Below are positions 721 through 57,072 of a DNA stretch of 64,000 nt, in pieces. The stretch comes from Candidatus Parcubacteria bacterium. Lineage in GTDB: Bacteria; Patescibacteriota; Minisyncoccia; UBA6257; HR35. Location: NCBI GenBank assembly GCA_026004495.1, contig BPJG01000001.1:560527-624526 (forward strand), in the 5' to 3' direction. The notes under the pieces were generated by a model. That model did not search any database, had not been told where the DNA came from, and worked only from the letters and a program-made list of their open reading frames with translations. Numbering within the stretch: position 1 is the first letter of the stretch; every line of letters starts with the position of its first letter. The position numbers and the translations under genes were made by a program.

Positions 721-1812
721 ATGATAATAGAAAGATTTAGACAAGAAAAAGAAAGACAACAAAGAGAAGTATATAAACAAAGTCCCGAAGGAGCTTCACC
801 TACCTTTAAAGAGATTTTAGATCATCCTGTTTATTCTGATATGTTGAATGCCTTATTAGAGAATGATGGCCAAAATTATCTTAGAGAAAAATTAGTAAAA
901 AGAGAAGAACTAACCCAAGATGATTTTGAAAAATTATATCAATATAGAATAAAAATAAAAGAAGCCTTAGATAGGTCTAAAGAAGTTTTAGATATTCTAA
1001 ATAGTCCAGAAAGAATTGAGTTAATGGCATCTTGTTCACCAGAATTTGCAAAAATAGTTGGTGTATTAGGCGCAGAAGAAACCTTAGATTTACTTAAAAG
1101 ATATATGGCTTTAATTTATGTTAAAAATCCAGAAAGCTTTAATGATTTAAGTTCAAAAATTGAAACTATAACCCAGGCAGAGCAACAACTTCAAAGCTTA
1201 GAACAACAAATAAGAGATTTTGCAGAAGCCCATAAGATACCTTCAAATATAATAGAGAGATTTTATCAATTATCTGCTCAAAATAGAACTGTCGCTGAGC
1301 AATCTTTGATAACTGATATAAGAAAAAATCTTTCTTTTATTGGTAAAATAAGAGATTTTATAAATCGAGGAGAATTTTCTTATGAATATTTTAAATCATT
1401 AAATAAGATTGATGAAATAGAAGAACAACTTAATACTATAAATCAAAACTTAGGAGAGATAGGAAATATGATAGCAGAAGCTATTGAATCTAGCGGAACA
1501 GATTTATTATCAAAATATTTATATGGCAGAAGAATAGAAATACCTTCATTTTCATTTAAAAATGCAGGTGAATTAATAGAGATATATGGAAGTGATGAAG
1601 AATTAGAAAGAGAATGGCAGGAATACTTAGAAGACCAAGAAGTAACAGATTGGGAACAAATAGATGATGAGGAGAGAGCTACTATAAAAAATGGATTTAA
1701 AAAACATTTATCTCGAAAAAACCAAGAAAAGTTTGGAAAATTGTTCGATTGGTTTTTCGGAAATAATGGTCCCTTAGGTCGATTTGTGAATAGTTTTTTG
1801 AATAGTAAATAA
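721..1812 (+). CDS. hypothetical acidic coiled-coil protein
   Basis: 363-aa ORF with an ATG start. It is rich in E/K/Q heptad-like stretches, has no TM segment and no recognisable catalytic motifs. Confidence 0.5.
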   Translation: MIIERFRQEKERQQREVYKQSPEGASPTFKEILDHPVYSDMLNALLENDGQNYLREKLVKREELTQDDFEKLYQYRIKIKEALDRSKEVLDILNSPERIELMASCSPEFAKIVGVLGAEETLDLLKRYMALIYVKNPESFNDLSSKIETITQAEQQLQSLEQQIRDFAEAHKIPSNIIERFYQLSAQNRTVAEQSLITDIRKNLSFIGKIRDFINRGEFSYEYFKSLNKIDEIEEQLNTINQNLGEIGNMIAEAIESSGTDLLSKYLYGRRIEIPSFSFKNAGELIEIYGSDEELEREWQEYLEDQEVTDWEQIDDEERATIKNGFKKHLSRKNQEKFGKLFDWFFGNNGPLGRFVNSFLNSK

Positions 1813-1817
1813 TTAAA

Positions 1818-2111
1818 ATGGAACAGGAAATAGTTGAAAATTTAACAAAAGTTTTAAGAGAAGGAACAGAAGAAGAAATAAGAAATTTTTTAGTTGAAAA
1901 TTTTGACAAATTCCCAGAAGATTTAAAAACAATAATAGTAGGTACATTTTTTGAAGAAAGTTTAGAAAGATTAGAAGCATTGTCAAAAGGCACATCAGAG
2001 GCTTTAGAAGTTTTTAAGCTTTATAAAGAGCTAACAGAAATAAAAAATAGGTTAGAAAATAGACTAAAAGAACTAAAATTAAGACAAGAACTTTTAGGAG
2101 AAGAAGAATAA
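1818..2111 (+). CDS. hypothetical small acidic protein
   Basis: 97-aa ORF starting 5 nt after the previous stop. Glu-rich, predicted helical or coiled coil. Confidence 0.45.
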   Translation: MEQEIVENLTKVLREGTEEEIRNFLVENFDKFPEDLKTIIVGTFFEESLERLEALSKGTSEALEVFKLYKELTEIKNRLENRLKELKLRQELLGEEE

Positions 2112-2184
2112 AGCCAGAATAATCAATAGCTACTATTCTAAACTACTTCAAAAAATTTAAATTTTCCTATATTATTTAAACCTA

Positions 2185-2213
2185 TTGACAAATTGTCAAA
2201 TATATATTATAAT
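2185..2213 (+). promoter_or_regulatory. perfect consensus sigma70-type promoter (TTGACA, 17-nt spacer, TATAAT) with an overlapping 15-bp perfect palindrome TTGACAAATTGTCAA
   Basis: TTGACA at 2185-2190 and TATAAT at 2208-2213 with exactly 17 nt between them. The -35 hexamer forms a 6-3-6 inverted repeat with TGTCAA at 2194-2199. It lies 32 nt upstream of the ATG of the 2245 gene, which has an AGGAGG SD at 2231-2236. Confidence 0.55.
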
Positions 2214-2244
2214 TTAATTAGATCTCTATAAGGAGGTGACAGTA

Positions 2245-2853
2245 ATGAGGTGGCTTTTCTTATCTCTCTTTTTGCTGGGCATTCTATTGGTCCATCCCTC
2301 GCCCTCGCAGGAAGCGCAGGAAGTTATTTCATTCCGCGCTATCCTCGAGCGCGGAGGGGGAGATCCTGACTGGGATCAGCTTAAGATTCCAGCGAAGGAT
2401 CTCTCAAAACTTCGGGGACCTGCTGGCCCTCGAGGGCCGCAAGGCCCTCGTGGCCCCCAGGGGCCACCTGGTCGTCCAGCTGGTTCTCCTCAAGCCGTCG
2501 CAACCTCACCCTCGCCGACTGCCGTCAAGGCGGCGGCAGGGAAAGAGGAAAAAAACTCTGAGGAGGTGATCACTCACATGTTATTAGTTCTCACTTTAGT
2601 CTTGGCGCTGTTTGCGTTGTTTTTGGGCTTTGTTTTGGGTAAACACTCCCAACAACGACCCCAACCCCAGCCCCAACCCTACCCTCATCAACCTCAACGC
2701 CACCTTGAAACTTTCAGGGAAGTGGATAGGGATAGACTTCTGAGGATAAAGAGGGGCGAGGGGTGGTTAAGGGTAACGGTGGATGAAGCGAGGGGTGGAT
2801 GGGAGGGGGAAACATACCCGCCCGTTCACCATGACTCGCAACACCAGTCTTAG
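2245..2853 (+). CDS. GC-rich foreign-looking gene: signal/TM N-terminus, a collagen-like G-X-Y run (GPAGPRGPQGPRGPQGPPGRPAG), a central TM helix, and a Pro/Gln-rich (QPQPQPQPYPHQPQ) C-terminal region
   Basis: ATG at 2245 sits 8 nt after a perfect AGGAGG SD. The track's GTG at 2236 lies inside the SD and is less likely. Codon usage (CGC/GCC/CCC/GGG) and GC of about 55-60% contrast sharply with the AT-rich flanks. A GC hairpin terminator follows directly. Confidence 0.6.
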   Translation: MRWLFLSLFLLGILLVHPSPSQEAQEVISFRAILERGGGDPDWDQLKIPAKDLSKLRGPAGPRGPQGPRGPQGPPGRPAGSPQAVATSPSPTAVKAAAGKEEKNSEEVITHMLLVLTLVLALFALFLGFVLGKHSQQRPQPQPQPYPHQPQRHLETFREVDRDRLLRIKRGEGWLRVTVDEARGGWEGETYPPVHHDSQHQS

Positions 2854-2861
2854 GCTTTGCC

Positions 2862-2889
2862 CCGGCCCGCTTTTGGCGGGCCTTTTTTT
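2862..2889 (+). terminator. rho-independent terminator (GGCCCGC-loop-GCGGGCC followed by a T7 run)
   Basis: Perfect 7-bp GC stem at 2864-2870/2876-2882, then TTTTTTT, 9 nt after the stop codon of the GC-rich gene. Confidence 0.7.
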
Positions 2890-3152
2890 AATATTTAAAT
2901 TTTTTTGTTAATTATGATTTAGTTAACTTTTTAAATAAGTTAAAATTTTTTAAAATGAGAAGAATTAAAGGACCAAGAGGGCATCAAACTAATTCAAAAA
3001 AGACCTTAATTATAAAGAGAAATTTAAATATTTTTTAAAAAATTATTAAAAAATAATTAAATATTAAATAAATATTAATTGAACGAATTTGATTTTAGAT
3101 TTAATAAAATTTATAATAATAAATGAGTCGTAAGTAAAAAAAAGCTAAAATT

Positions 3153-4499
3153 ATGGCGAGAGAACCATCTCCAGAACAGCCATTAAGAGGACAAAGAGAG
3201 TCAACGCAAAGAAGACGACGAAGACAACAAAGAGGAGCTTCAGTAGAATCACAAATAGAACAAACACAAGTATCAGAAATAATAGAGAACTTAGAGGATA
3301 GAATATATAAAGAAAAAATAAAAGAAACTTTTGAAAGATATATTCAAAACTACCAAAATTATGTAAATTTATTAAATATTACTAGAGAATTATTTGAAAG
3401 AGAATGGGAAAGTGTGGTAGAAGAGTATTTTATAGAAGCAAAACAAAATGCCTTAGAAAGAGCAAGCGAATTAACAACAGGCGTAACTTCTGAAAGACGA
3501 ACTGCTGTATTTAGAGGAGTTTTGGAGGATGAAATTAGGCTTAAAGAAAAAGAATTAGAAAATGAATTTAGAATGATTTTAGGATTACACCTTCTTACTC
3601 TAAATCCTGGCAATCCAATTGTGATGGAATTTTTAAGAGAGAAATGTTCAATAGAAAATATTTTGAAGTTTATTGAGCCTATAAATCAACCACCTGGAAT
3701 AGGAAGCATATTTTATGCAGGAGAGCGAGAAATAGAATATAAACAGATAACTTTTAAAATTAATCCAGCTTGGGCTTCTTTTCTTGTAAATGTTCTTGTA
3801 GAAAAAAGTAAAACTAGAGAGGATATAGAAAAAATTGCTGAAAGGTTAAGAGAAGTTATTAGAAAGCACTTAGATTTTATCAGAGAAAATATTTCAAGAA
3901 ATGAATCATTCTTATTAGAAAGGATAAAAAGAAGATTAGCAAGAATAGCAGGAGATTTAAATTTAAAAACTCAAGAAGGACTTGAAATGTTATTAAAGAG
4001 AAGAAAAATTGCAAGAAAGATATTAGGATTAAAAGATGATGAATTGTTAACTGAAGAAAGATTGAGAAGGTTAACACAAAACCAATTAGATGAAATATCT
4101 ACAAAGGCTCAAGGTGAACAAATTAATTTTGAAGAAGAAAAGAAAAAAGCATTTGAAGAAGAAGTAAAGATATTAATGAGAGAATTAGAAGAATCCCTTA
4201 ATTTAAAACCAGAAGAATTAATGAAAAAAGACCCAGAAGAGTTAAAGCAGTTATTAGAGCAATTGAATCAAACCGCTCAAGTTTTAGGGGTCCCATTAGA
4301 AGAACTTAGAAAAGCTACCACTGAAGAAGAAAAGAAAAAAGCTAATGAGAAACTTCAAAAAGCTTTAGAAAGTGTAAAAGATATTGCTGGGATTTTAGGA
4401 GGTATGGCATTATCAGGATTTCTTTTGTGGTTTTCTTTAATTGGGTTTTTCTTTCCAGTTTGGGCTATTGAAAAAATGCAAAAAGAAATTAAGATTTAA
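3153..4499 (+). CDS. hypothetical tail-anchored coiled-coil protein (Arg-rich N-terminus, C-terminal TM helix)
   Basis: 448 aa. The N-terminus is RRRRRQQR, there are long E/K/L/R coiled-coil stretches, and the hydrophobic C-terminus is GMALSGFLLWFSLIGFFFPVWAI. No recognised family. Confidence 0.5.
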   Translation: MAREPSPEQPLRGQRESTQRRRRRQQRGASVESQIEQTQVSEIIENLEDRIYKEKIKETFERYIQNYQNYVNLLNITRELFEREWESVVEEYFIEAKQNALERASELTTGVTSERRTAVFRGVLEDEIRLKEKELENEFRMILGLHLLTLNPGNPIVMEFLREKCSIENILKFIEPINQPPGIGSIFYAGEREIEYKQITFKINPAWASFLVNVLVEKSKTREDIEKIAERLREVIRKHLDFIRENISRNESFLLERIKRRLARIAGDLNLKTQEGLEMLLKRRKIARKILGLKDDELLTEERLRRLTQNQLDEISTKAQGEQINFEEEKKKAFEEEVKILMRELEESLNLKPEELMKKDPEELKQLLEQLNQTAQVLGVPLEELRKATTEEEKKKANEKLQKALESVKDIAGILGGMALSGFLLWFSLIGFFFPVWAIEKMQKEIKI

Positions 4500-7230: not shown

Positions 7231-8568
7231 ATGAAAATTAAATTTTGTGGAGGAACCAATAGAGTAACTGGAGCTAATTATTTAATTGAAACAGATAAAC
7301 ATAAATTTTTAGTTGATTGTGGTTTGATTCAAGGTAAAAATGTTTGTGAATTAGAAAATTTCGAAAGTTTTCCTTATGAAGCGAAAGAGATTCAGTATGT
7401 TTTTATTACCCATTCTCATTTAGATCATATAGGTAGATTACCTAAGTTAATTAAAGAGGGATTTCCTGGCTATATTTATAGCACTCTACCTACTAAAGAT
7501 TTAGCCAAAGAAATTTTATTAGATTCTCAAAAGATTATTGAAGATCATTGCTTATTTTTCCAAAAAGAAAATTTTTATAATAAAGAAAATTTAGATAAAG
7601 TTTTTCAAAGATGGCTGACCCTTAATTATTATGAAAAATTAAATTTTGATGGTTTAGAAGTTATTTTTTTTGATGCGGGACATATTTTAGGTTCAAGTTT
7701 CATTCAATTTAAGTATTTAAATAAAACTATTGTTTTTTCTGGTGATTTAGGTAATATTGATCCACTTTTAAGACAGACTGATGAACTTCCGGAAACAGAT
7801 TATTTAATTTTAGAGTCAACTTATGGGGATCGTCTTCATGAAGATTTAATAAATAGAAAAGATATATTAGAAGATATTATTGAAGAAACAATAAAAAATA
7901 AACGAACACTTATTATTCCAGCCTTCGCTTTAGAAAGAAGCCAAGAAGTTTTATATGATTTAATTTCTTTGATTGAAGATAAAAAGGTGCCAGAAATTAA
8001 AATTTATTTAGATAGTCCTTTAGGTATTAGAATTTTGAGAATTTATGAAAAATATCCTGAGTTTTTAAATGAAACAGCCAAAAAATTTTTTATTACCCGT
8101 GATTATGAAAAATTAAATTATTTCAAAATAATAGAACAGGGAAGTATTAAACAATTGATTGAAGATAAATTACCAAAAATTATTATTTCTAGCTCAGGAA
8201 TGTTAAAAGGAGGAAAAATTATTGATATATTAAAATATTTTATAGATAAACCTGAAACAACTATTCTTTTTGTTGGTTTTCAAGTTGAAGGTTCGTTAGG
8301 GAAAAAAATTTTGGAAGGAGAAAAAGAAATAATTTTAGATGATAAAAAATATCAAATTAGAGCAAAAATCGAAAAAATAATGTCTTACTCAGGCCATAAA
8401 GATCAACAAGGAATTATTAAATGGGTTGAACCACAAAGAAAAAGAATATTGAAAACATTTTTAGTTCAGGGGGAGGAAAAAGCTAAAATTAACTTAAGAA
8501 TAAGATTGGAAGATTATCTAGGAATTAAAACCATTATACCCCAAAATAATGAAGAAATAGAATTATAG
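7231..8568 (+). CDS. MBL-fold beta-CASP ribonuclease (CPSF73/RNase J-like)
   Basis: N-terminal KFCGGTNRVTGANYLIETDKHKFLVDCGLIQG and the HSHLDHIG (HxHxDH) motif, with beta-CASP motifs downstream. ATG at 7231 is preferred over the track's upstream start at 7207, which overlaps the previous gene. Confidence 0.65.
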   Translation: MKIKFCGGTNRVTGANYLIETDKHKFLVDCGLIQGKNVCELENFESFPYEAKEIQYVFITHSHLDHIGRLPKLIKEGFPGYIYSTLPTKDLAKEILLDSQKIIEDHCLFFQKENFYNKENLDKVFQRWLTLNYYEKLNFDGLEVIFFDAGHILGSSFIQFKYLNKTIVFSGDLGNIDPLLRQTDELPETDYLILESTYGDRLHEDLINRKDILEDIIEETIKNKRTLIIPAFALERSQEVLYDLISLIEDKKVPEIKIYLDSPLGIRILRIYEKYPEFLNETAKKFFITRDYEKLNYFKIIEQGSIKQLIEDKLPKIIISSSGMLKGGKIIDILKYFIDKPETTILFVGFQVEGSLGKKILEGEKEIILDDKKYQIRAKIEKIMSYSGHKDQQGIIKWVEPQRKRILKTFLVQGEEKAKINLRIRLEDYLGIKTIIPQNNEEIEL

Positions 8569-8576
8569 ATTTAAAA

Positions 8577-9083
8577 ATGTTTATCAAGCCTAAAGAAATA
8601 ATTGAAATTTTAAAGAAAAACCTTTTTATTAAAAAATCAGATAGGGTTGCTGAATTTGGTTGTGGAGCTGGTTATTTTACTGTTCTCTTAGCCGAAAATG
8701 TAGCTGAAGTTTACGCTATTGATATATTAGAAGATAATTTAAATGAAGCAAAAGAATTGGTTGATATTTATAGTTATAAAAATGTTAATTTTATAAAGGC
8801 TGATGTTAAAAATTTAAATTATGAAGATAATTTTTTTGATGTAGTTTTTATCAGTCAAATTTTATTTCAAAATGAAGGTTATGATAGTATTTTAGATAGC
8901 GCTTTAAGAATTGTTAAAAATGGAGGTTTGATTATTATTTTAGAGCCTAATGAAAAATTATCCTTTATTAGTGGCCAGCCTATTAGTTATGAATTTATTC
9001 AAGTATATTTTAAAATTAAAAATAAGAAAATAATTTTCCAAAAATTTTTTGGTCCATATTATTTAATCGTAGTTGAAAAGTAA
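8577..9083 (+). CDS. class I SAM-dependent methyltransferase
   Basis: Motif I VAEFGCGAGYFT, an acidic residue at the end of strand 2 (AIDILED), and a size of about 168 aa. Confidence 0.6.
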   Translation: MFIKPKEIIEILKKNLFIKKSDRVAEFGCGAGYFTVLLAENVAEVYAIDILEDNLNEAKELVDIYSYKNVNFIKADVKNLNYEDNFFDVVFISQILFQNEGYDSILDSALRIVKNGGLIIILEPNEKLSFISGQPISYEFIQVYFKIKNKKIIFQKFFGPYYLIVVEK

Positions 9084-9089
9084 GAAGTT

Positions 9090-10322
9090 ATGAATAAATT
9101 TTTAACTGAGTTAAGATATAGGTATATTTCAGTAGTGATTTTTGTTTTGATTGTTATTATTATTATTGCTTTTTTGGTAGATAGATTATTTCTTGCCAGC
9201 AAAAGAAAAAAATCACAATTACCTTGTTATAATCAAGAATTAACTATTTGGTCAACCTTTAATTTAAAAGATTTATCAAAACCTATCAAGTCTATTCAAA
9301 AATATTGTTTAAAGATTAATGTTGTTAAAAAAAATTTTGATGATATTAAAAATAATCTTCTTTTAGAAACAGCTGCTGGTCGTGGCCCTGATATTGTTTA
9401 TATTGATAATGATTTTGTTTTAAAAAACTTAAAAATTTTTGAACCCTATAAGGGAAATAAATTAGATATTGATAATTATCCTGATTCAATTATTAAATTT
9501 TTGGACAAGAAGTTAATTCTTTATCCCCTAACATTTGATATTTTAGTTTTATTTGTTAATAAGACATATTTAGCTAATATTGGTTTATATGATTATCCAA
9601 AGACTTTTGAAGAAATTGAAAACATAATTCCTCAACTAAGACAAACCAGTTTTACTTCTTTTCAATTAGCTCCTATTTCTTTAGGTCAAGCTCATAATAT
9701 TGACAATTTTGTTGAAATATTTCTAACAATTAATAAAAATCTTAATCAAGAAAATTATGCCAGCAAATCGGCAGTTGAAAATACCTTAGATTATTTATCT
9801 CAATTCATTGATCTTAATTCTAATCTTTATAGTTGGGACTATAATATGCCTAATAATATTTTGGCTTTTAGTCAAGAAAATTTAGCTCTATTGCCAGCCT
9901 TTTATTCTCAAAAAGAAAAAATTAAAAAAATAAATCCTCGATTAGAATTTGCCATCTCTAGTTTTCCTAAATTCCAAAAATCAATAAAAAAATATAATTA
10001 TTTAAAGGTTTATTATTTTGGAGTAATTAAAAATAAAAAATCAAAATATAGCTGGCTCTTTATTGAAGAATTTGATAAAAGTTATAAAGAATTTATCAAC
10101 AGTAAAGATTTAATTCCTTTAAGAAAAGATACCTTTGAAAATTTAGATAGCGAGAAAAAAACCCTAATTAATGAGCTTTTGGTTGGTGATTACTTTAATG
10201 AAGCGAATTATGAATTTTTAGTTGAAACCCTACCAAAGTATCTTGAGGGTTGGCTAAGCAACAAAGGCAATTTAAAAAATACTCTTGAAAGAGTTGATAT
10301 CTTTAAATTTTTTAAAAAATGA
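9090..10322 (+). CDS. membrane-anchored extracellular solute-binding protein-like (family 1, MalE-like), orphan
   Basis: N-terminal TM anchor. The motif AAGRGPDIVYIDNDFV resembles the SBP family-1 signature (G-x-x-PD-x7-D). No permease or ATPase genes are adjacent. Confidence 0.4.
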   Translation: MNKFLTELRYRYISVVIFVLIVIIIIAFLVDRLFLASKRKKSQLPCYNQELTIWSTFNLKDLSKPIKSIQKYCLKINVVKKNFDDIKNNLLLETAAGRGPDIVYIDNDFVLKNLKIFEPYKGNKLDIDNYPDSIIKFLDKKLILYPLTFDILVLFVNKTYLANIGLYDYPKTFEEIENIIPQLRQTSFTSFQLAPISLGQAHNIDNFVEIFLTINKNLNQENYASKSAVENTLDYLSQFIDLNSNLYSWDYNMPNNILAFSQENLALLPAFYSQKEKIKKINPRLEFAISSFPKFQKSIKKYNYLKVYYFGVIKNKKSKYSWLFIEEFDKSYKEFINSKDLIPLRKDTFENLDSEKKTLINELLVGDYFNEANYEFLVETLPKYLEGWLSNKGNLKNTLERVDIFKFFKK

Positions 10323-10693
10323 AACAAATTGTTTTTTTAGTTATTTTTCTATTGTTAATTATTAATAATTTTTCTTTAGCTCAAATTTCGGATACTGGTT
10401 TGGTTGGTAAAAAATGTGATGCGAATACAGATGAATGCACTTTAGCAGATTTTATTTCAGCCGTTCAAAGATTAATTAGATTTTTATTAATTTTAGGCTA
10501 TTGGATTGCAGCCTTGGTTGCTCTTATTGGTTCTTTTATGATGATGTTAGGGGGTGCCAAACGAGATTATCTTGATAAAGGTAGAACAATGATAATTAAT
10601 TCTCTAACATATTATGTTTTATTACTTTTAGCTGGAATTTTCTTTGATTTAATTTTAGATTTCTTAAAACCAAAAGTATTTACAGGTTATTGA
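10319..10693 (+). CDS. small secreted two-TM protein with a Cys pair (TrbC/VirB2 pilin-like topology), paralog 1
   Basis: Signal peptide, then KKCDANTDEC, then two hydrophobic helices. It shares this architecture with the next gene and with the N-terminus of the 47344 gene. ATGA overlap with the upstream gene. Confidence 0.4.
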   Translation: MKQIVFLVIFLLLIINNFSLAQISDTGLVGKKCDANTDECTLADFISAVQRLIRFLLILGYWIAALVALIGSFMMMLGGAKRDYLDKGRTMIINSLTYYVLLLLAGIFFDLILDFLKPKVFTGY

Positions 10694-10695
10694 AA

Positions 10696-11136
10696 ATGAA
10701 AAAGAATTTATTATTTTTATTAATTATTATATTTATTTTAGAGCTACCTAATTTTTATATTTATTCTCAAACTTCAAGCACTACAACTTCAAGTGCTACA
10801 AGCAATTCATCAACAATTGATGTTTTATCTCAGGATAGTTGGAAATATTTTTATAATGTTTTTAGACCCGCAGCCGATGTCTCTTGTCTTCAGGGTTCAA
10901 GCGTCTTTGAAAAAATTAATAATTGCCTTATTCGAGTTTTGTCAGCACTTCAATATTTAGCAGTTATTTTATTTTTAATTTCCTTAACAGTGATAGCTGG
11001 TTTTTTAGTTTTTTCTCCTGTTAGAAAAGATTATTTAGATATAGCTAAAAAAACTTTTTTTTGGACAATTTTAGGATTTATAATAATTTTTATAGCTCGA
11101 GAAATTCTACAAGCAATTAACCAATTAATAAGATGA
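10696..11136 (+). CDS. small secreted two-TM protein with a Cys pair (TrbC/VirB2 pilin-like topology), paralog 2
   Basis: Signal peptide, a Ser/Thr-rich linker, C...C (DVSCLQG...NNCL), then two TM helices. ATG at 10696; the track's TTG at 10690 is also possible. Confidence 0.4.
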   Translation: MKKNLLFLLIIIFILELPNFYIYSQTSSTTTSSATSNSSTIDVLSQDSWKYFYNVFRPAADVSCLQGSSVFEKINNCLIRVLSALQYLAVILFLISLTVIAGFLVFSPVRKDYLDIAKKTFFWTILGFIIIFIAREILQAINQLIR

Positions 11137-11242
11137 AAAAAATTGTTTTAGTAAGCAATTAATCAAGAAAAAAAAATTTAATATGGATAATAATAGGTTT
11201 TATAATTTTATTCATAGTAGAAAAAATTAGGGAATCAATAAT

Positions 11243-12604
11243 ATGGCTACCAGGAAAATAGGAATTATTATTTTATTTTTAGTACTAATTTTAATAAATA
11301 CTGCATCAGGACAAATAGAGAATATAGAAGAGCATTTTAGTAAAAAATTTAAGCAATTATTATCAAAACGGGGCGATTGTAATGTTGGCCTTGTATTGCT
11401 CGAACCTATTACAAAGTTTTTGGGAATTTATAGGATGGAGGGGTGGATAGAAGTTCTTTATAATAATAGAATAACTAAGGTAATACCACGTGACCCATTT
11501 GATGAGAAGGTTCTTTGTATTAAAACAAACTTTATACAGAATCATCAAAATCTTTTTGTAAGTCAAGCTGCTATCTTAGATAAACTTGTTCTTTATTTCG
11601 AATGGGCTAGAAATATTTTAGAAGGTACTCGATATTCATTTATTGATAGAATTATTACAAAATTTTATGGCGACCCCTATATGTCAGAACCAGCAGAAGC
11701 TCTATTAAAATCAACCCCCCCTTGTATATCAATTTTAAGAAATTTTGTAAATCGACAACCAGTAGATGCTAATTTAGTAGATAATGAAAAGGGGTTATTA
11801 CAAGATTTGTTTGAAAGAGGAATAGCAAGTGGTGCTGTAATCAGGAACGCTACATCTTACTCTTTTCAAGATGCTACTATTTCAAGAATGGTTGGGGGAG
11901 ACGAAAAATTTCAAGCTTTAAAAAGTGATACAAAGAAATTCATAACACAATTTAATAGTTTTAGTACAAGCATAGGGGAGGCATCAAAAACTTTTTTTGA
12001 GGCATATAAACAAATTTCAGCACAAGAGGAGCTAAATAATTTTGCAAAAAGTGTAGATAAATTTGTAAATGAAAATGCAACTACTGCAAGACTTTATTTA
12101 ACCTCTAATCAACAAGAAAGTACTTGCCTTCTTCTTTTAAATGTTATATTAACTGGGAAAACTCCAACAGGAAGAGATGCTTCGAACTTTAGTCAAAATA
12201 TTTTAAAACCCCAAATGGAAATGGTTTCAAGTACTATGAAAGAAATTAATAAAATTATTACTTTTCTTAATATAGCAATTATTAAAGCCGAAAGACAAGA
12301 AATACCCCTTGCTGTTATTCCGCCAATTGTTTTTAGTGATGAACATAGAGGAGCAGAATCTTTTAAACAAATTACGCCGGAAAGAATATTTAATGAGGTT
12401 AGAGATTTTATTTTTAATTTATCACCTATTATTTTTATTTTACTTTTAATTATTGGAGCAATATTTTATATTCTTTCGCCTATTAAAATTGAATATCTTA
12501 AAATAGGTTCAGAATATATTAAATGGGCAGTTATAGGTTATTTTGTTTTATTGGTTATTTCAGCTATTTTTATGGCTCTTAGAATAATTTTCGGCGGACC
12601 ATAA
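11243..12604 (+). CDS. hypothetical secreted protein with two C-terminal TM helices
   Basis: Signal peptide MATRKIGIIILFLVLILINTASG, an extracellular domain of about 380 aa, and two C-terminal TM segments. No recognisable motif. It sits between the pilin-like genes and comEC. Confidence 0.45.
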   Translation: MATRKIGIIILFLVLILINTASGQIENIEEHFSKKFKQLLSKRGDCNVGLVLLEPITKFLGIYRMEGWIEVLYNNRITKVIPRDPFDEKVLCIKTNFIQNHQNLFVSQAAILDKLVLYFEWARNILEGTRYSFIDRIITKFYGDPYMSEPAEALLKSTPPCISILRNFVNRQPVDANLVDNEKGLLQDLFERGIASGAVIRNATSYSFQDATISRMVGGDEKFQALKSDTKKFITQFNSFSTSIGEASKTFFEAYKQISAQEELNNFAKSVDKFVNENATTARLYLTSNQQESTCLLLLNVILTGKTPTGRDASNFSQNILKPQMEMVSSTMKEINKIITFLNIAIIKAERQEIPLAVIPPIVFSDEHRGAESFKQITPERIFNEVRDFIFNLSPIIFILLLIIGAIFYILSPIKIEYLKIGSEYIKWAVIGYFVLLVISAIFMALRIIFGGP

Positions 12605-12609
12605 AATTT

Positions 12610-13905
12610 ATGATTTCTAATATTTTCTTTTTCTTTTCTTTTTTCTTTATTTTAGGTATATTTTCTAAATATTATTTTAGCTTATGGTTTATTTTGGCAC
12701 CCTTGATTTTAATATTATTTTTAAGATACAAATTTTTAGCTATTATTTTTTGTTTAGCTTTTTTATTAGGCGGTGGTTATTTGGTAGTTTATCAAAATTT
12801 TAAGTCTAAATCTTCGGATGATTCTATTGTAATTTCTCGTGAGCTTCCTTCAACTAATTATTTTAAAAAATATTTAGGCGAATTTAAAGGTAAGAATTAT
12901 TTTATTTATTTACCTTATTATTATGATAAATTATATCCTCAAGATAAAATAAATGCTGTCTTTACTATGGTTGAAGATAGAATTTTTATTCAAGATTTAT
13001 TTGGAGTTAAAAAATCAATCTATTATCCAATTTATAAATTTCGTGATTATATCAATAGTTTAATTGATAAAAATTATTCTTTAGCAACAAGTGAAATTAT
13101 TGGTGGAATTTTATACGGTCGAGAAATTAATGATAAAGATATTAGAGAAAATCTAAGAAAATCAGGTTTAAGCCATATTACCGCTATGTCTGGTTATAAT
13201 TTAATTGTTCTCTCTCTATTTATAAATCGATTATTTAAGTTTTTGCCTGTAAGTTTTTTAATTAATAATATATTTACAATTTTAATCATTTTAATTTTTA
13301 TAGTTTTTACTGGTTTTCAATCTTCAGTTATTAGAGCAGGAATAATGATGGTTGTTTTTATTACTTCTAAATTAATTGGTAAACCAAGTCTTCGAAGAAA
13401 TGTTATTATTTTTACTGCTTTATTGATAACCTTTTTTAATCCCTTGGCTTTAATTAATGATTTGGGCTTTCAACTTTCTTTATTGGCAACAATAGGAATT
13501 ATTTATTTCGAAGAATTTTTAAGAAATTTTCTAAAATTTAAATTTTTAAGCGAAACAATTTCAGCTCAAATTTTGGTTTTACCATTAATTTGGTATAAAT
13601 TTAGTGAATTTAATATTTTTTCTTTTTTCAATAATGCTCTTATTATTTCTTTTATCCCCTTTATGATGCTTTTAGGGTTTTTGGCTATATTATTCTATTT
13701 TTTCTATCCAGTTAATCAAATTTTTAATTTACCTTTTTTAATTTTCCTTAAATTAATTGGCTATTTAGCTAATTTTCCTAAAATTTATTTTCCCTTACCT
13801 TTATTAATAATTATTGCGATTTATTTTTTTATTTTTTTATTAATTTTTAAAATTAATCGTAATGAAAATATTGACTTTAATTTTAAGCTTAACAATCATT
13901 ATTAA
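12610..13905 (+). CDS. comEC: ComEC/Rec2 competence channel protein (DUF4131 plus Competence domain)
   Basis: Polytopic membrane protein containing the ComEC-characteristic segment LRKSGLSHITAMSGYNLIVL. Confidence 0.7.
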   Translation: MISNIFFFFSFFFILGIFSKYYFSLWFILAPLILILFLRYKFLAIIFCLAFLLGGGYLVVYQNFKSKSSDDSIVISRELPSTNYFKKYLGEFKGKNYFIYLPYYYDKLYPQDKINAVFTMVEDRIFIQDLFGVKKSIYYPIYKFRDYINSLIDKNYSLATSEIIGGILYGREINDKDIRENLRKSGLSHITAMSGYNLIVLSLFINRLFKFLPVSFLINNIFTILIILIFIVFTGFQSSVIRAGIMMVVFITSKLIGKPSLRRNVIIFTALLITFFNPLALINDLGFQLSLLATIGIIYFEEFLRNFLKFKFLSETISAQILVLPLIWYKFSEFNIFSFFNNALIISFIPFMMLLGFLAILFYFFYPVNQIFNLPFLIFLKLIGYLANFPKIYFPLPLLIIIAIYFFIFLLIFKINRNENIDFNFKLNNHY

Positions 13906-14656
13906 TTTATTTTTATTTTGGTATATCTTTGATAATCTAAAAACAGACAGCTTTGTTGCTTTTTTGGATGTTGGCCAAGGAAGTAGTGTTTTAGTTTTTA
14001 ATTCTAAACTAAAGCTTCTTTATGATGTTGGACCTTATGGCTTAAAGACAATTAATGAATTAAATAAACTAACTAAAATTTATAATAGAACCCTGGATGT
14101 TGTTTTTATTTCCCATCCTGACAGAGATCATTATGGAGGCATTTTTGATATTATTGAAAGATATAAAATAAGATTGATTATAATTAATCCTTATCTATCA
14201 TCAGAATCTGGTTATTTAAAATTTTTAGAATTAATTAAAAATAAAAATATTCCTTTTATTACTCTTAAGGCTGGCGATTATCTTGAATCAAATTTTGAGA
14301 AAATTTTTATTGTTCATCCAGATAAAAGATATAAAAATGATAATCAGAATTCATTAGTTCTTAAAATATTAAAGAATGGAAAAGAATTTTTATTAACCGG
14401 TGATATTGATCAAAAAATTGAAAAACATTTGATTGAAAAATATGGTAAAAATATAAAAGCAGATTATTTACTTATTCCTCATCATGGTTCTAAATATTCT
14501 TCTAATCAATATTTTTTGTCTAATTTTAATTATGCCATTATTCAAGTCGGACAAAATAAATATAACCACCCCCACTTAGAGGTTATTGAAAGATTAAATA
14601 AAATGAATTTACCCTATTGGCGAACTGATTTAAATGGAATATTTATGGTAAAATAG
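13862..14656 (+). CDS. ComEC C-terminal metallo-beta-lactamase domain as a separate overlapping ORF (split comEC)
   Basis: FLDVGQGSSVLV, the HxHxDH-like ISHPDRDHYGG, and LLIPHHGSKYSS match the ComEC lactamase_B domain. It overlaps the comEC ORF by 44 nt in a different frame. Confidence 0.65.
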   Translation: MKILTLILSLTIIINLFLFWYIFDNLKTDSFVAFLDVGQGSSVLVFNSKLKLLYDVGPYGLKTINELNKLTKIYNRTLDVVFISHPDRDHYGGIFDIIERYKIRLIIINPYLSSESGYLKFLELIKNKNIPFITLKAGDYLESNFEKIFIVHPDKRYKNDNQNSLVLKILKNGKEFLLTGDIDQKIEKHLIEKYGKNIKADYLLIPHHGSKYSSNQYFLSNFNYAIIQVGQNKYNHPHLEVIERLNKMNLPYWRTDLNGIFMVK

Positions 14657-24272: not shown

Positions 24273-25569
24273 TATTAATTAATATCTTAATAAATATTCT
24301 TAAAAAAATCAAAATATATTTTTATCTTAGTTAAATTTATTTTTTTTAATTATTTTCAAAATTATTTGACCTAATTTTTAAATATAGCATAATTTAATTC
24401 TCTTGTCAATTAATTATTTTAATAATTAAAATAATATTCAAAAGGTAAATTAAATATTTATGTTTTTTTATTTATTTTATTATTTTTATAATAAAAAATT
24501 CAAATATCTTTTACTTAAAATAAAATATTTTTAATTGATTTGGGGAAGATATTAATTTCTGAAAAATTAACCGCAATAGATATTAAATTTATTCAAGAAA
24601 TTTTTAAAGAAGAAGTAAATAAAAATTTATTTTTGACCGATAAATTAGATAATTAACAATTTCAGTTTTAAAAGAATTTCAAAAAAATATAATATAAATC
24701 AATTAGGCAAAATTGATCTCGATATAATTAAGCTTATTTTAAGTATTAGTGGCTTAAATGGTATAAATTTATCTCATAATAAATTATTCTTTACTTCAAA
24801 ACAAGATAATTTATTATCAATTAAAAAATAATCAAATAAGAAAAGGATAATTAATAATAAATTGGAAAATCTACTCCATCTTACCATTATTATTCTTTCT
24901 GATAAAGTTACACGACATTAAATTTTAAATTAATAATTATGGAGCAAAGAGTAAAAATCATTTGAATTAAGGTTTTAAGAGATTAAAAATTTAATGGAAT
25001 ACAAGTATATCCAATTTTCTTATCTTTGTCTTACAACCTATATATATTTTGATATACTAATGAGATTCAAGTACTTCAAAATAAATTTTAATTTTAAATT
25101 AGCTTCTTTGCCTAAGGTAGGTAATTTAACCCTTGATTTAGATAGATTAAACATTAATAAAGATTATCAATTGGATTTAGGATGCATCATTTTTTAAGTT
25201 ATCTTAAAGATATTTCTAATGAAAAATGGTAATAAGTTTGTATTAAGCTTAATAAACGGTAATAATAATATTGATGATCAAGATAATTTAAATATTTTTT
25301 TTATTTAATTATATTGCTAATATTTAGTAAGGGTAATATTAACTATGATTTAAATTTTAATTCACTAATTAATGATAAAGATTTAAATATAATTCTTAAA
25401 AATTTTGACACAAAGAGATACTTAAAAGTAATAATATATACAATAAAATAACTTAAAAGTATAAAATTTTTTATTTTGAAAATAACTCTTTATTATTTTA
25501 TCCACTGTTTATCCTCAACTTTAAGATATTTGACAAAAATTTTTTTTGGAGTAAAAATATTTGATTAAG

Positions 25570-29462: not shown

Positions 29463-31168
29463 TTTGTTATTAATAAAAACTTTAATTAATGATAAATTTT
29501 TGATAATAATATTAATTTTTAATATGAAAAATCTTAATATATTCAAAAGCCTATGTTAAGACTAAACTTTTATATTTAGTTATTTCCTGCCTAATAAGTT
29601 TATTTATTATTAAAATTATTTTTGCCAGCAAATTTTAAATGATTATTATTTTATGTTGATGAATATATAAACTTAATTTAATTGGTAGATAATAACAAAT
29701 GATCTTTTTATTTAATTTCCTTTTCTAATAATAATAAAATTCATATTACTAATTCTTATCTCAATAACACTCGCAAGGAGGGTGATAATCCTATTTTTAT
29801 TCAATCAACTAGTTAAGCACGAACCAATTTTAATATTTCTCTTAGAAATCATAGATCAGCAACGGAAATTTATAAATTTATTACTTCCTATGAGTATGAT
29901 AATCCATCATCATCATTAGTTTTTTAAAGTCTAAAGATGATATTAGATTAATAATTAAAAGAATTATAAGTAATTCTGCTTTAACTTCTAAAATACTTAA
30001 ATTTAATGAAAGATCTAATTATATTTATATTTCTCCTAATCAAATTTTAACTCGAGTTTATAGATGTGATCAAGGGATTCGCTTAATTTTAAAAAAAATT
30101 AATAACCCACCAAATATTAATTAAGTCAATTTTGAATATGATATTCCTAATAGGAAATTTTATTATTAATATTTAGGAACTATTAAGCCTTCTTTATTTT
30201 AAAATAATTAGTTAAAGAAAGCAGACAAACAATATTTGAATTTTTAACTATGACAAATAGAGTTGATGATTCATTTATCATTCCTGTAGGTTTAAATCTT
30301 ATCCCTCTTCAATAAAGATATAATTTAGAATTATTAGTTAAAAATTTAGATAACACTCAGAAATCAAAAATAATTGGCCTTACAAACCGAAATTACATTT
30401 TTAATAATCTTCAATTAAAAATATTTTTAGTCAAAAATATTTCTTCTTAAATCGCAGAAATATGGGTTTTAACAAGTAGAATTTCTGATTTATTAAGTGA
30501 GATTAATAATAGATTTATTATTAATTATGGCACTGAAACCAATCCCATTTATGGGAATAAATTTTTAGTTAATAAATGATGTAGATTTGAAAATATTATC
30601 TATTACTGTGCCAACATCGTTTGATGAATTTACCTCCGGTCATTAAATATAATTTTTATGTTACCCTAATTAATGATGCTAATTTAATTACGACTTCAAC
30701 TATTTATAATTTTACTACCTTAGGTTCAACAACGCCTATAGTTAATAATCTTCAAGTAAACTATAATTCACCTCGAGACAATATTTATGCTTAATAATTA
30801 AAGGAAGGGTAATAGATAAAAATACCCTCTGAGATTTGAAGCTCGATTAAATAAGCAGGAAATTCCAATAAGATTTTTTAATAATCTATTTGAATTCAAT
30901 CTAAACAATATCTAAGTTACAACGACTTCTGAATTAGGGATTATAATTCGAAATAATTTAAACCCTGAAAGAGTTCTTAATTTTTTTTTACCTAATTTAT
31001 CTCGATAGAAATTTAATTTCTAAAATTATATTTTTTATATTTTTATTAAAATTTAAATAAAATTTATAAAAATTTCTATTTTATTTTTTAAAATTACTAA
31101 AATATTTTACATAAATATATATATAAATAAATTTTTAAAAAATATTTATTCTTATTTAATTTATTATT

Positions 31169-56537: not shown

Positions 56538-56699
56538 TTATCCACATTTTTTACTTAATATAAAAAAAATTTTATATAATAATTTTTATATAATTTAAAA
56601 TGAAAAATAAAAAATATTAAAAAAATTTTTTGAATAATAAATCGGATTGGTCGGTCCGATTTAAAAAATTAATGGCTAGAAAAAAACGGATTTAAATAA

Positions 56700-56768
56700 A
56701 TGGCTACAAAGAAATCATCTAAATCATCTAAGTCAGCTAAACCAGCTAAATCAAAGAAAAAAAGATAA
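56700..56768 (+). CDS. possible 22-aa Lys/Ser-rich micro-ORF (MATKKSSKSSKSAKPAKSKKKR)
   Basis: ATG-to-TAA ORF followed 32 nt later by a strong terminator. There is no SD and it may be non-coding. Confidence 0.2.
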   Translation: MATKKSSKSSKSAKPAKSKKKR

Positions 56769-56800
56769 AATAGTTTTAGTTATATAAAGATAAAAAATTA

Positions 56801-56841
56801 AACAAACTCCTAGGTTTAATCCTAGGAGTTTGTTTTTTTTA
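56801..56841 (+). terminator. rho-independent terminator (14-bp perfect stem AACAAACTCCTAGG/CCTAGGAGTTTGTT, then a T8 run)
   Basis: Perfect inverted repeat with a 6-nt loop followed by TTTTTTTT. Confidence 0.65.
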
Positions 56842-57000
56842 TTTGTTTTTAATTTTAATATAACCTTAAATTTTTTTATATTTTAAAAAAATTATTTATC
56901 ATAAAAATTTGTTAATAATTAGTGGATAAATATCTAAAAATATATTATTTAACTATATTTTTTGATATTAGTTTTTATTTTTAATTTTTGTTTTTAATTT

Positions 57001-57070: not shown

Positions 57071-57072
57071 AA

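Follow-up and report, generated by a model that had tools for sequence, protein, structure and literature searches.

Tandem genes for VirB2-like pilins are a known feature of Patescibacteria: 441 arrays of 2 to 11 genes, with a mean identity of 25%, have been recorded in 383 assemblies (PMC12102498), further cases are described in PMC10633639, and the subject has been reviewed (PMC12857230). Such genes lie near virB4 in 1,135 of 1,948 assemblies (PMC12102498), and in S. epibionticum the pilin cluster is essential and sits inside the T4SS cluster (PMC10633639). No experimental demonstration of pilus formation by any protein of the Pfam family PF18895 (T4SS_pilin) is reported in the cited literature. 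For the neighboring competence gene considered here, the absence of ComEC-MBL (metallo-beta-lactamase) fusions in CPR genomes has already been noted (PMC6744442).

We analyzed a 64-kb stretch of DNA (the window) from a Candidatus Parcubacteria bacterium MAG (KatS3mg094), with proteins named KatS3mg094_556-559. An initial annotation had proposed that it encodes a lineage-specific surface-filament and DNA-uptake apparatus, not described at the family level; all six open reading frames of that proposal were confirmed. Our reading, to which we assign a probability of about 0.7, is that positions 9090 to 12604 hold a four-gene surface cassette of the VirB2-like pilin-array type, next to a ComEC of ordinary two-subunit form. 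By sequence, the cassette appears to be another example of the tandem arrays known across Patescibacteria and not a new DNA-uptake machine. Novelty at the family level had to be given up, since PF18895 exists and tandem VirB2-like arrays in Patescibacteria were published in 2023-2025.

Two small proteins related to VirB2/TrbC pilins

The first small protein, pilA (10319 to 10693, plus strand, 124 aa), begins with a signal peptide, predicted to be cut between SLA and Q, and has a C33-C40 pair that is invariant across 9 orthologues and hydrophobic helices at residues 51-81 and 90-118, joined into a hairpin by a basic loop. Its AlphaFold model (pLDDT 77) places helices at residues 2-23, 42-77, and 82-116. 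The paralogue pilB (10696 to 11136, plus strand, 146 aa) has the same architecture, with a Ser/Thr-rich N-terminal ecto-segment between the signal-like helix and the cysteine pair (C64/C77). The signal peptides, cysteine pairs, and two-transmembrane hairpins described earlier for both proteins are therefore present; the cysteine pairs are invariant inside each orthologue group, and the Gln at the predicted +1 position after the signal peptide is nearly invariant. Identities among pilB orthologues are 46 to 70%, and pilA and pilB together span 44 to 71%.

The suggested TrbC/VirB2-type topology is upheld by this architecture and by homology to the superfamily: 19 of 26 close homologues match PF04956 (TrbC) and 13 of 26 match PF18895 (E <= 0.01). 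The score of pilA itself is weak (TrbC, 13.6 bits), with orthologues and paralogues that match both families. Full-length pilB reaches 23.2 bits for PF04956 and 19.0 bits for PF18895, both under the cut-offs, and its module taken alone reaches 24.8 and 21.3 bits, respectively; a precomputed PF04956 assignment is carried by two pilB orthologues. These features also bear on whether the small proteins could be type IV or Flp/Tad pilins, whose partner would be a PilB-type ATPase in canonical DNA uptake by a competence pilus. Type IV pili and ComEC do cooperate in Saccharibacteria transformation (PMC10633639), and type IV pilus components are widespread in CPR (PMC6744442). However, the N termini are ordinary signal peptides of the Sec type, with A/S/G as the last residue and Gln after it, and show neither a class III motif (G before the cut, then F/M-xxx-E) nor the Flp G-xxxx-EY motif; the mature proteins consist of two hydrophobic helices instead of one N-terminal helix and a globular head; and TrbC and T4SS_pilin are the only Pfam pilin families matched. 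We reject this identity on signal type, helix number, and Pfam assignment, and consider it to have practically no chance of being correct.

ATGA overlaps had been reported among the first genes. The stop codon of the SBP-like gene does overlap the pilA start in this way, but the pilA/pilB junction is TGAAAATG, with a 2-nt spacer, and becomes a TTGA overlap if a TTG start at 10690 is taken for pilB. Short overlaps are common between unrelated neighbors in the window (4 nt for DUF763/MscS, 11 nt for M50/RNase J, and several ribosomal-protein genes) and are therefore weak evidence for a functional unit.

One module in four proteins

The same module occurs in four window proteins: pilA, pilB, the C terminus of the 453-aa protein, and the N terminus of a protein encoded at 47344. 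The paralogy noted originally is real (pairwise BLASTP of the modules gives E-values down to 1.7e-9), but the count rises from three copies to four because the C-terminal transmembrane helices of the 453-aa protein are a further pilin module. A loop motif, (K/R)xDYL(D/K), is common to the window modules. The four proteins score 13.6 to 25.2 bits, each below the gathering thresholds (26.6 and 27.9), whereas searching with a profile built from the four modules gave 1,826 representative clusters at E <= 1e-3, and 50 of 51 diverse members retrieved match PF18895 (best, 2.8e-18), with 25 of 51 matching PF04956. Judged by these profiles, all four copies are divergent members of PF18895, which is related to TrbC/VirB2.

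The 453-aa protein (11243 to 12604, plus strand) had been described as secreted with two C-terminal transmembrane helices, which is correct; a signal-like helix is also present. It comprises a signal peptide, an ectodomain (approximately residues 25 to 348), and a C-terminal pilin module (residues 373 to 453; PF18895, 25.2 bits at residues 379 to 443), the last two connected by a conserved VIPPxVxSDEHxG linker. A search of 5.8 billion sequences yielded only 6 homologues. Its AlphaFold model is of low confidence (pLDDT 55) and mostly helical. Between relatives, the mostly helical ectodomain is hypervariable, with 8 to 28% identity, as opposed to 59 to 77% for the C-terminal 105 aa and 44 to 82% for housekeeping proteins. 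Ectodomain type does not track phylogeny: L002 and L099, though distant, are matched by the window sequence at approximately E = 1e-45, but its closest relative, L004, at only 1e-10. This pattern supports a putative role in surface interaction.

The fourth copy, pil3 (47344 to 48204, plus strand, 286 aa), carries a signal peptide, C29/C41, a pilin module at residues 42 to 104 (PF18895, 23.9 bits), and a C-terminal LAS/Hedgehog-type zinc hydrolase domain, in agreement with the fusion initially proposed. When a profile of 4 pil3 orthologues was compared with the PDB, it matched the N-domain of Sonic hedgehog over the zinc motif (E = 0.0015). H210, H215, D223, H279, and H281 are invariant; the match to Peptidase_M15_4 has an E-value of 0.076. 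The domain probably acts on peptidoglycan.

Fusions on either side of the module, to the ectodomain of the 453-aa protein and to the unrelated pil3 hydrolase, raise the alternative that the two-helix module is a membrane anchor or oligomerizing hairpin for surface display of ectodomains and small Cys-bonded peptides, with no filament and no T4SS; the name T4SS_pilin would then reflect homology only. In F-pilus structures the two ends of VirB2-type pilins point outward, so such fusions are also compatible with incorporation into a filament. The wider family is similarly varied: the best 150 representative matches to the module profile include 28 with a large N-terminal extension, 18 with a C-terminal extension, and 76 single polypeptides with 2 to 8 tandem modules. 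A plain hairpin fold would likewise suit an anchor; Foldseek, the structural comparison suggested for the pilin fold, gave no significant match of the pilA model to the PDB (best E = 0.57), and no solved structure matching the pilin-family profile was found. The recommended search for VirB4- or PilB-type ATPases was also negative over the range covered: no VirB4, VirB6, or VirD4 gene was found in the window or within ~10 kb of the cassette in the gene tables of relatives, and no PilB-type ATPase was found in the window. Nevertheless, the profile homology to TrbC/VirB2 is consistent, pilA and pilB are conserved although they are nearly devoid of an ectodomain, which fits a structural role for the hairpin, and the published proximity to virB4 and essentiality within the S. 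epibionticum T4SS cluster (PMC12102498, PMC10633639) argue against a mere anchor. We regard the anchor as unlikely, though deserving of some weight, and prefer the pilin-array reading.

Upstream of pilA lies the gene for a 410-aa membrane-anchored homologue of MalE-like solute-binding proteins (SBP; 9090 to 10322, plus strand), with one N-terminal transmembrane helix and a match to PF13416 (SBP_bac_8) at 32.8 bits against a cut-off of 27. Among solved structures, MalE1 and MalE2, the maltose-binding proteins of Thermotoga, are closest (E = 5e-5). No ABC partner was found nearby, and orthologues (38 to 67% identity) occur only in the close clade, always immediately 5' of pilA.

ComEC in two subunits

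Beyond the cassette, ComEC is encoded by two open reading frames that share 44 nt and are read in different frames. The first (12610 to 13905, plus strand, 431 aa) has N-terminal transmembrane helices, a short ecto-region, and a Competence domain (PF03772, 128.7 bits; TIGR00361 positions 137 to 371) and lacks an MBL domain. The second (13862 to 14656, plus strand, 264 aa) has its own N-terminal transmembrane helix followed by an MBL domain (PF00753, 41.4 bits; TIGR00361 positions 414 to 663, 113 bits). An overlap of this kind is expected of a frameshift in one gene, whether a sequencing error, a pseudogene, or a programmed event. However, every close relative has the two-frame arrangement in independent assemblies, the MBL motifs (DVGQG, HPDRDH, VHP, TGD, and PHHG) are intact, and among the matches listed, none of the 120 channel homologues (247 to 531 aa) contains an MBL domain. 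No fused gene occurs at any of 78 distant Patescibacteria ComEC loci; at 52 of them an MBL frame of its own follows downstream on the same strand, and 46 of these 52 frames start with a hydrophobic helix. The spacing ranges from -379 to +5,662 nt, at times wide enough for other genes. A frameshift origin is effectively ruled out by the relatives, the separate MBL genes, and the intact motifs, and we hold it to be very improbable. The split observed initially is thus real but not peculiar to this locus: it is the phylum norm, a channel subunit with a separately anchored extracellular MBL nuclease.

Linkage of the cassette to comEC

The gene for the 453-aa protein ends 5 nt before comEC, all genes are on the same strand, and no terminator-like site was found between cassette and comEC. 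In the clade, whose gene order is RNase J-MTase-SBP-pilA-pilB-big-ComEC-MBL (big being the 453-aa gene), no more than a few bases ever separate the cassette from comEC. Wherever an orthologue of pilA or pilB could be detected, at identities as low as 46%, the order from SBP to MBL is kept, and in L099-L103 the linkage persists though the downstream AspRS/ribosomal block is not adjacent. Given this intimacy, the absence of a terminator, and the linkage in L099-L103, cotranscription and some functional link are possible.

The initial annotation went further, to one apparatus. In such a system, extracellular or host DNA would be captured for ComEC either by a filament of VirB2-like type or by the SBP and the ectodomain protein, much as the Helicobacter pylori ComB T4SS works with ComEC, or as in the archaeal Ced system. 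The T4SS-ComEC partnership of H. pylori is a precedent (PMC12857230), DNA import by Patescibacteria T4SSs has been hypothesized (PMC12102498), and ComEA was detected in only 31% of CPR genomes (PMC6744442), leaving scope for a different DNA receptor. On the other hand, RNase J and the methyltransferase gene, with no obvious link to it, are equally tightly tied to the cassette, so the linkage mainly reflects local synteny in a gene-dense, codirectional genome. One locus, L092, keeps ComEC-MBL-AspRS without the cassette, in place of which RNase H and HhH-GPD genes lie upstream. It groups with cassette-bearing genomes in a neighbor-joining tree, where a group of cassette bearers alone is recovered in only 44 of 200 bootstraps, and it probably nests among them. 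At the 78 distant loci, a broad HMM found no pilin module near ComEC, and a topology screen that recovered 10 of 10 positive controls found no pilin-like small reading frame there. The hypervariable ectodomain, with pI values between 5.5 and 8.5, does not resemble a conserved DNA receptor. S. epibionticum can do without comEC but not without the T4SS and its pilins (PMC10633639, PMC12857230), so the essential role there is not exerted through ComEC.

Comparison of gene order in relatives, proposed at the outset, hence found the order kept in a narrow clade, with L092 as a break and the distant loci devoid of pilins. The adjacency on which the joint apparatus was based is the gene order of that one syntenic clade and not demonstrated functional coupling. 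Coupling of the cassette to DNA uptake is possible but unsupported, and we consider a single apparatus decidedly unlikely.

A proposed model for the cassette

According to the pilin-array reading, each protein would be exported by Sec, and signal peptidase would probably leave a mature N-terminal Gln. From sequence and topology, the module is predicted to form a helical hairpin in the membrane, its basic loop facing the cytoplasm and its two termini the exterior, so that the variable ectodomain, the hydrolase, and the N-terminal segments with their disulfide bonds would be displayed at the cell surface. By homology, a VirB4/VirB6-type machine encoded at another place in the genome may then draw the hairpins from the membrane to build a short pilus or stalk. 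The structural subunits would be pilA and pilB, with the 453-aa protein as a variable adhesin in a VirB5-like or Trw-like role and the SBP homologue as a ligand-binding accessory. Within a family already described, what is comparatively new is the hypervariable ectodomain of the 453-aa protein, which varies independently of phylogeny, together with the fusion of a pilin module to a LAS-type zinc hydrolase and the coupling of an SBP-like gene to a pilin cassette.

Gene content of the locus

The window is dense in genes, with a G+C content of ~25%, and its housekeeping complement includes a ribosomal-protein operon and the genes for SecY, DnaB, SecA, GroEL, ClpB, PheST, MurB, PBP, and TGT. The locus encodes proteins identical to KatS3mg094_556 to _559, from a 634-kb contig of a Candidatus Parcubacteria metagenome-assembled genome; the window is part of a chromosome from the Patescibacteria (CPR). 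Each of the six ORFs listed in the initial annotation was found at its coordinates. The first (9090-10322) encodes an SBP-like protein with one N-terminal transmembrane (TM) helix and a 32.8-bit match to PF13416, whose nearest solved relatives are Thermotoga maltose-binding proteins. It is followed by two small genes, pilA (10319-10693) and pilB (10696-11136), whose products each have a signal-like N-terminal helix, a Cys pair, and two more hydrophobic helices, and by the gene for a 453-aa protein (11243-12604) with two C-terminal helices in addition to a signal-like one. The last two ORFs encode ComEC: the first (12610-13905) carries the Competence domain, and the second (13862-14656), which overlaps the first by 44 nt, carries a metallo-beta-lactamase (MBL) domain.

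ATGA overlaps had been described between the first genes; the overlap is present at the SBP/pilA junction, but at no other. Short overlaps of this kind also connect unrelated housekeeping genes across the window, so that they tell little about function. A scan for promoters and terminators returned 78 promoter-like sites, against 78.6 expected in the AT-rich sequence of the window.

The small proteins are related by sequence to VirB2-type pilins

The window contains four copies of the two-helix hairpin module: PilA and PilB have one each, the 453-aa protein has one at its C terminus, and Pil3, a 286-aa protein encoded at 47344-48204 on the forward strand, has one at its N terminus. The last of these had been noted as a third paralog fused to a hydrolase; the fusion is confirmed, but the copy is the fourth, since the 453-aa protein also ends in the module. 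All four copies align through a common loop motif, (K/R)xDYL(D/K)xx(K/R), with pairwise E values down to 1.7e-9, and hydrophobicity profiles place a short, positively charged loop between two helical segments in each. A heuristic reading of the N termini, based on hydrophobicity and the residues at -3/-1, predicts signal peptides made of a hydrophobic helix of ~20 to 25 residues with small residues at -3/-1, followed by Gln (SLA↓Q, IYS↓Q, ASG↓Q, and SLA↓Q in the four modules). The Gln after the predicted signal-peptidase site is almost invariant, and the Cys pairs are invariant inside each orthologue group. In the AlphaFold model of PilA (mean pLDDT, 77), the signal helix is followed by a helix-loop-helix hairpin with helices at residues 42-77 and 82-116 (pLDDT, 76 to 91).

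None of the four copies reaches the Pfam gathering cut-offs of 27.9 and 26.6 bits (PF04956, TrbC/VirB2, and PF18895, T4SS_pilin, in that order), which are operational values rather than a biological feature. PilA scores 13.6 bits against TrbC, PilB scores 23.2 against TrbC and 19.0 against PF18895, and the 453-aa protein and Pil3 score 25.2 and 23.9 against PF18895. Among the 26 close homologues, 19 match PF04956 and 13 match PF18895. Searched against 1.84 billion proteins, a profile built from the four window copies retrieved 1,826 representative clusters at an E value of ≤1e-3; when 51 diverse members of this set were compared with Pfam, 50 matched PF18895 (best, 2.8e-18) and 25 matched PF04956. 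At the sequence level, homology of the window modules to the TrbC/VirB2 and T4SS_pilin families is clear through these intermediate sequences and profiles, despite the subthreshold scores. Together with the signal peptide and hairpin architecture, this bears out the earlier assignment of the small proteins to the VirB2 type.

Type IV and Flp pilins were considered as alternatives and are ruled out: the N termini are of the Sec type, with neither the class III G↓F/M-xxx-E motif nor the Flp G-xxxx-EY motif, and each mature protein contains a pair of hydrophobic helices instead of a single N-terminal one. A Foldseek search of the PDB with the PilA model (pLDDT, 77) gave no significant match, the fold being a plain hairpin, and profile searches of PDB sequences with alignments of the close and the broad family returned only spurious membrane or designed proteins. 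The lack of a specific match in the PDB is expected for a bare hairpin from a family with no solved member.

Comparison with described pilin systems

The initial annotation regarded the system as not described at the family level, a view that does not hold: PF18895 exists in Pfam, and arrays of such genes in Patescibacteria have been published (PMC10633639, PMC12102498, PMC12857230). Wang et al. (2023) described a series of essential predicted pilins within the T4SS cluster of Southlakia epibionticum (SEML1_0006-0019; PMC10633639). Using PF04956 and PF18895 on 3,035 Patescibacteria genomes, Quinonero-Coronel et al. (2025) reported VirB2-like pilins in 1,948 assemblies, of which 1,135 have them near virB4, as well as 441 arrays with a mean identity of 25%, an array being 2 to 11 pilin genes of low identity in tandem or with one nonpilin gene between them (PMC12102498). 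A 2025 review treats VirB2-like pilins as something particular to the T4SSs of Patescibacteria (PMC12857230). With three consecutive module-bearing genes, and with copies 15 to 31% identical to PilA, the window array fits the published description (PMC12102498); a search for its assembly in the supplements of that study gave no match.

The array shares with the published ones the phylum, the Sec signal peptide and hairpin, and the low-identity tandem paralogues. It differs in that its copies are divergent and fall just under the Pfam thresholds, that an SBP-like gene with a translational overlap precedes it, that its last module bears a hypervariable ectodomain of ~325 aa, and that comEC lies directly downstream. 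There is no virB4 beside it within 64 kb, as in ~40% of the published cases (PMC12102498). Indeed, genes for VirB4/VirB6-type assembly proteins and for a PilB-type ATPase were absent from the 64-kb window, in which every ORF of at least 500 aa encodes SecA, GroEL, ClpB, PheT, PBP, or a DUF11 protein. Nor did the gene tables examined for relatives contain any VirB4/VirB6-type Pfam family within ~10 kb.

Like Agrobacterium VirB2, RP4 TrbC, and F TraA, the window pilins combine a long signal peptide with a hydrophobic hairpin and a short basic loop. The processed N terminus of VirB2 is Gln, and in their predicted mature N terminus the window pilins resemble it. They differ from the TrbC/VirB2 pilins in that the host is monoderm; that the VirB5, VirB7, VirB9, and VirB10 context is absent; that they have a Cys pair in the N-terminal ecto-segment; that they show no sign of cyclization or of a pilus; and that modules of the family are often fused to ectodomains or joined into tandem multimodule polypeptides. 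In many relatives of the module outside the window, these "polypilins" have two to eight hairpin modules after one signal peptide: P0153 (583 aa) contains seven modules of ~75 to 85 aa, P0154 (820 aa) also contains seven, and P0163 is another example. They make up 76 of the best 150 representative matches, a ranking in which summed scores push such proteins upward. The passages on these pilins that we draw on in the literature cited here make no mention of them.

A fast-evolving ectodomain on a conserved module

Identity between relatives is 44 to 71% for PilA and PilB, similar to that of ComEC, and 38 to 67% for the SBP-like protein. For the 453-aa protein, it is 8 to 28% in the ectodomain (window positions 11315-12286) and 59 to 77% in the last 105 residues. 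At least two unrelated types of the ectodomain exist, and they are distributed in a way that departs from the phylogeny of housekeeping genes: the window shares its type with the distant relatives L002 and L099 (~E = 1e-45), and its closest relative, L004, has a different one. This distribution suggests recombination or long-maintained alleles. On the sequence evidence, the pattern is typical of surface adhesins or host interaction proteins under diversifying selection or recombination. A role of the ectodomain as a DNA receptor was considered and rejected, since its hypervariability and its varying pI (5.5 to 8.5) argue against a conserved receptor of this kind.

The AlphaFold model of the 453-aa protein is of low confidence (pLDDT, 55), and all Foldseek matches to it had E values of ≥0.17. 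Chains of the R388 VirB5/VirB6 stalk stood at ranks 4 to 6, 43, and 50 (E values, 0.17 to 0.8; rmsd, 14.7 to 23.5 Å). With such E values, an rmsd above 14 Å, and a model of this quality, likeness of the ectodomain to VirB5 is not counted as evidence.

Divergent tandem pilin paralogues accompanied by a highly variable surface component are also found in the Trw T4SS of Bartonella. There, variants of the pilin TrwL and of the VirB5-like TrwJ are tandemly amplified, which has been read as an adaptation to different host surfaces (PMC12857230, PMC12102498). In the window, unlike in Trw, a pilin module and the variable component are parts of one polypeptide.

In the closest relative, L004 (KatS3mg095), the SBP-like gene is broken into two overlapping ORFs of 255 and 171 aa (7976-9209), the cause being a frameshift or pseudogene, or else an error in the assembly. 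If the break is real, the SBP-like protein would be dispensable for the cassette, by which we mean the SBP, pilA, pilB, and 453-aa genes.

Linkage of the cassette to comEC is confined to one clade

Only six homologues of the 453-aa protein were detectable, and 26 of PilA and PilB. A metagenome scan with PilA orthologues yielded eight more loci, in which identity to PilA falls as low as 46%. In all these loci, the gene order is RNase J, methyltransferase, SBP, pilA, pilB, large protein, ComEC, and MBL, usually with DUF763-MscS-M50 upstream and with AspRS and the ribosomal operon downstream. The linkage of the cassette to comEC is therefore constant within the clade; unrelated housekeeping genes are linked equally tightly, so it reflects general local synteny. 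In locus L092, whose ComEC is 50% identical to that of the window, the ComEC-MBL-AspRS order and the ribosomal operon are kept, the cassette is missing, and genes for RNase H, HhH-GPD, and PolA lie upstream of ComEC. A neighbor-joining tree of ComEC and MBL groups L092 with cassette-bearing genomes, and an exclusive group of cassette bearers appeared in only 44 of 200 bootstraps.

Further afield, we compared 78 distant ComEC loci of Patescibacteria, each from a different species-representative genome. A broad hidden Markov model, trained on 333 copies of the module from the family at large, found no pilin module near comEC in any of them, in flanks of up to 10 kb on each side, the scan giving a single marginal match (E = 0.008). 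A topology screen of the same loci, which recovered 10 of 10 positive controls, likewise detected no pilin module, and homologues of the SBP-like protein and of the ectodomain were also absent. A model made from close orthologues only found nothing outside the clade, being too narrow. Beyond one family-level lineage, then, co-conservation of the cassette with comEC is largely lacking, as the 78 loci and L092 show.

These comparisons bear on the reading that the cassette is cotranscribed with the two-subunit ComEC and that together they form a device for DNA capture and import, comprising an SBP receptor, two pilins, and a pilin-anchored variable ectodomain. Were it true, it would be a monoderm counterpart of the ComB-ComEC pairing of Helicobacter pylori or of the archaeal Ced system and would offer the first indication from genomes that Patescibacteria use their relaxase-less T4SS-type pilins to acquire nucleic acids from hosts. 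T4SS-mediated DNA import into Patescibacteria is a published hypothesis (PMC12102498, PMC12857230). As in H. pylori, a single organism has both ComEC and a VirB2-family protein, and in the window their genes even lie side by side. However, ComB is a diderm system made of homologues of VirB2-4 and VirB6-10, whereas homologues of VirB3, VirB4, and VirB6-10 of the ComB type are absent from the 64-kb window, and the pilin-comEC adjacency is kept in one clade only. With this restricted adjacency and no VirB4 or PilB ATPase in the window, the combined filament and DNA-uptake apparatus of the initial annotation is unsupported, and we consider the joint device unlikely, with a probability of roughly one in ten. 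A functional adjacency to comEC, for which the evidence here gives no support, would bear on what the Patescibacteria T4SS transports.

ComEC is usually encoded by two genes across the phylum

The first ComEC ORF matches PF03772 at 128.7 bits (cut-off, 23). The second matches PF00753 at 41.4 bits and positions 414-663 of TIGR00361 at 113 bits, and the MBL metal-binding motifs HPDRDH, VHP, TGD, and PHHG are intact in its translation. Like canonical ComEC/Rec2 (Bacillus subtilis, TIGR00361), the window pair has Competence and MBL domains, which jointly cover positions 137-663. It differs in being encoded by two genes, split just ahead of the TM helix that precedes the MBL domain. Separately, the two ORFs score 48 and 113 bits against the TIGR00361 equivalog cut-off of 190, and the product is thus not a single three-domain polypeptide. 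The OB-fold domain DUF4131 (PF13567) had no match at an E value of ≤0.1 in the window ComEC, in which a shortened ecto-region (residues 64-170) is left; it is also absent from the precomputed domains of the close homologues P0007-P0032 and is present in most of the more distant Patescibacteria ComEC homologues. The ComEC_N of the window's clade is ~70 aa shorter than that of other Patescibacteria ComEC proteins.

The overlapping ORF pair is the same in every close relative, and among the matches listed, all 120 homologues of the first ORF (247 to 531 aa) are without an MBL domain. In none of the 78 distant loci is ComEC fused to an MBL domain, and in 52 a separate MBL ORF lies downstream on the same strand; of these ORFs, 22 overlap ComEC, 9 start within 100 nt, 16 lie within 1.5 kb, and 5 are further away. 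An N-terminal hydrophobic helix of its own is present in 46 of the 52. In 19 of the 78 loci, no MBL gene was found in the downstream flank. A frameshift, pseudogene, or sequencing error could also divide one gene into two, an explanation we reject because the split is conserved phylum-wide. Judged from these sequences, the gene for the "MBL-less" ComEC of Patescibacteria seems to have been split at the level of the phylum rather than to have lost a domain; what is new beyond Meheust et al. is that the MBL part usually persists as a separately anchored neighbor. By analogy with canonical ComEC (PMC8579336), the first subunit would form the channel, and the second, tethered by a TM helix of its own, would degrade the nonimported strand as an extracellular nuclease.

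Pil3 and other features of the window

The C-terminal domain of Pil3 is a LAS/Hedgehog-type zinc hydrolase. A profile of four orthologues matched the N domain of Sonic hedgehog (E = 0.0015) across the metal motif; the His and Asp residues are invariant, within the invariant motif GDHxSxxHxxxGTAxD...HFH. By its predicted topology, the hydrolase domain could lie outside the membrane and act on peptidoglycan, and Pil3 could be a peptidoglycan hydrolase anchored at the cell surface. VirB1 is reportedly missing from most Patescibacteria that have VirB2 homologues (PMC12102498). One gene upstream of pil3, with a class II aminoacyl-tRNA synthetase (45990-47330) between them, is the gene for a 620-aa protein (44123-45985) with DUF11 and related Ig-like repeats, probably at the cell surface.

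Several other regions stand out. Two stretches, 24274-25560 and 29463-31168, are unusually long for a gene-dense genome to be without ORFs of at least 70 aa; an Rfam scan gave no match in either, and the second, with its many stops, reads like a degraded coding region. Next to it, on the reverse strand (31169-31930), a 253-aa ORF with no Pfam family contains ~4.5 copies of a 114- to 126-nt tandem repeat (31250-31802), and its product is probably a repeat-containing surface protein. Three consecutive ORFs at 721-4499 (363, 205, and 448 aa) also have no Pfam family; G+C content is 35.5% at 2001-4000, against ~25% elsewhere, and relatives carry nonhomologous unknown ORFs at the same place, upstream of DUF763. 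Finally, the gap before an ORF at 57073, which precedes rsmH/mraW, contains a 21-nt direct repeat and a cluster of TTATCCAC-like motifs (56538-57072), two of them perfect and the other three with a single mismatch. Upstream of mraZ, AAGTGG-type repeats serve as operator sites for MraZ; alternatively, the sites could be DnaA boxes. The DnaA-box search and the Rfam scan of the window yielded nothing relevant to the cassette or ComEC.

Implications

The original observation is confirmed, and the locus is a divergent example of a described kind. As predicted from sequence, the module proteins of the cassette and Pil3 would be exported by Sec, and the hairpin would be inserted so that both ends face outward and the basic loop faces the cytoplasm. 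By homology, the hairpins may then assemble into a VirB2-type filament through a T4SS encoded elsewhere, or they may simply anchor surface functions. The new points are modest: the coupling to an SBP-like gene, a pilin-anchored variable ectodomain, a pilin-hydrolase fusion, and the record, across the phylum, of the separate MBL gene.

Patescibacteria, which live in dependence on host cells, account for a large share of uncultured bacterial diversity, and in the single species where this has been tested, their T4SS-type pilins proved essential. To this the locus adds incrementally, as an example of how divergent family members slip under Pfam thresholds. It also presents the pilin hairpin as a carrier, both for a fast-evolving ectodomain that departs from the phylogeny and for a putative cell wall hydrolase. 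Lastly, the record of 78 loci indicates that in Patescibacteria an "MBL-less" ComEC usually comes with an MBL gene whose product is anchored separately, and that such a ComEC would be the outcome of a split and not of a loss.
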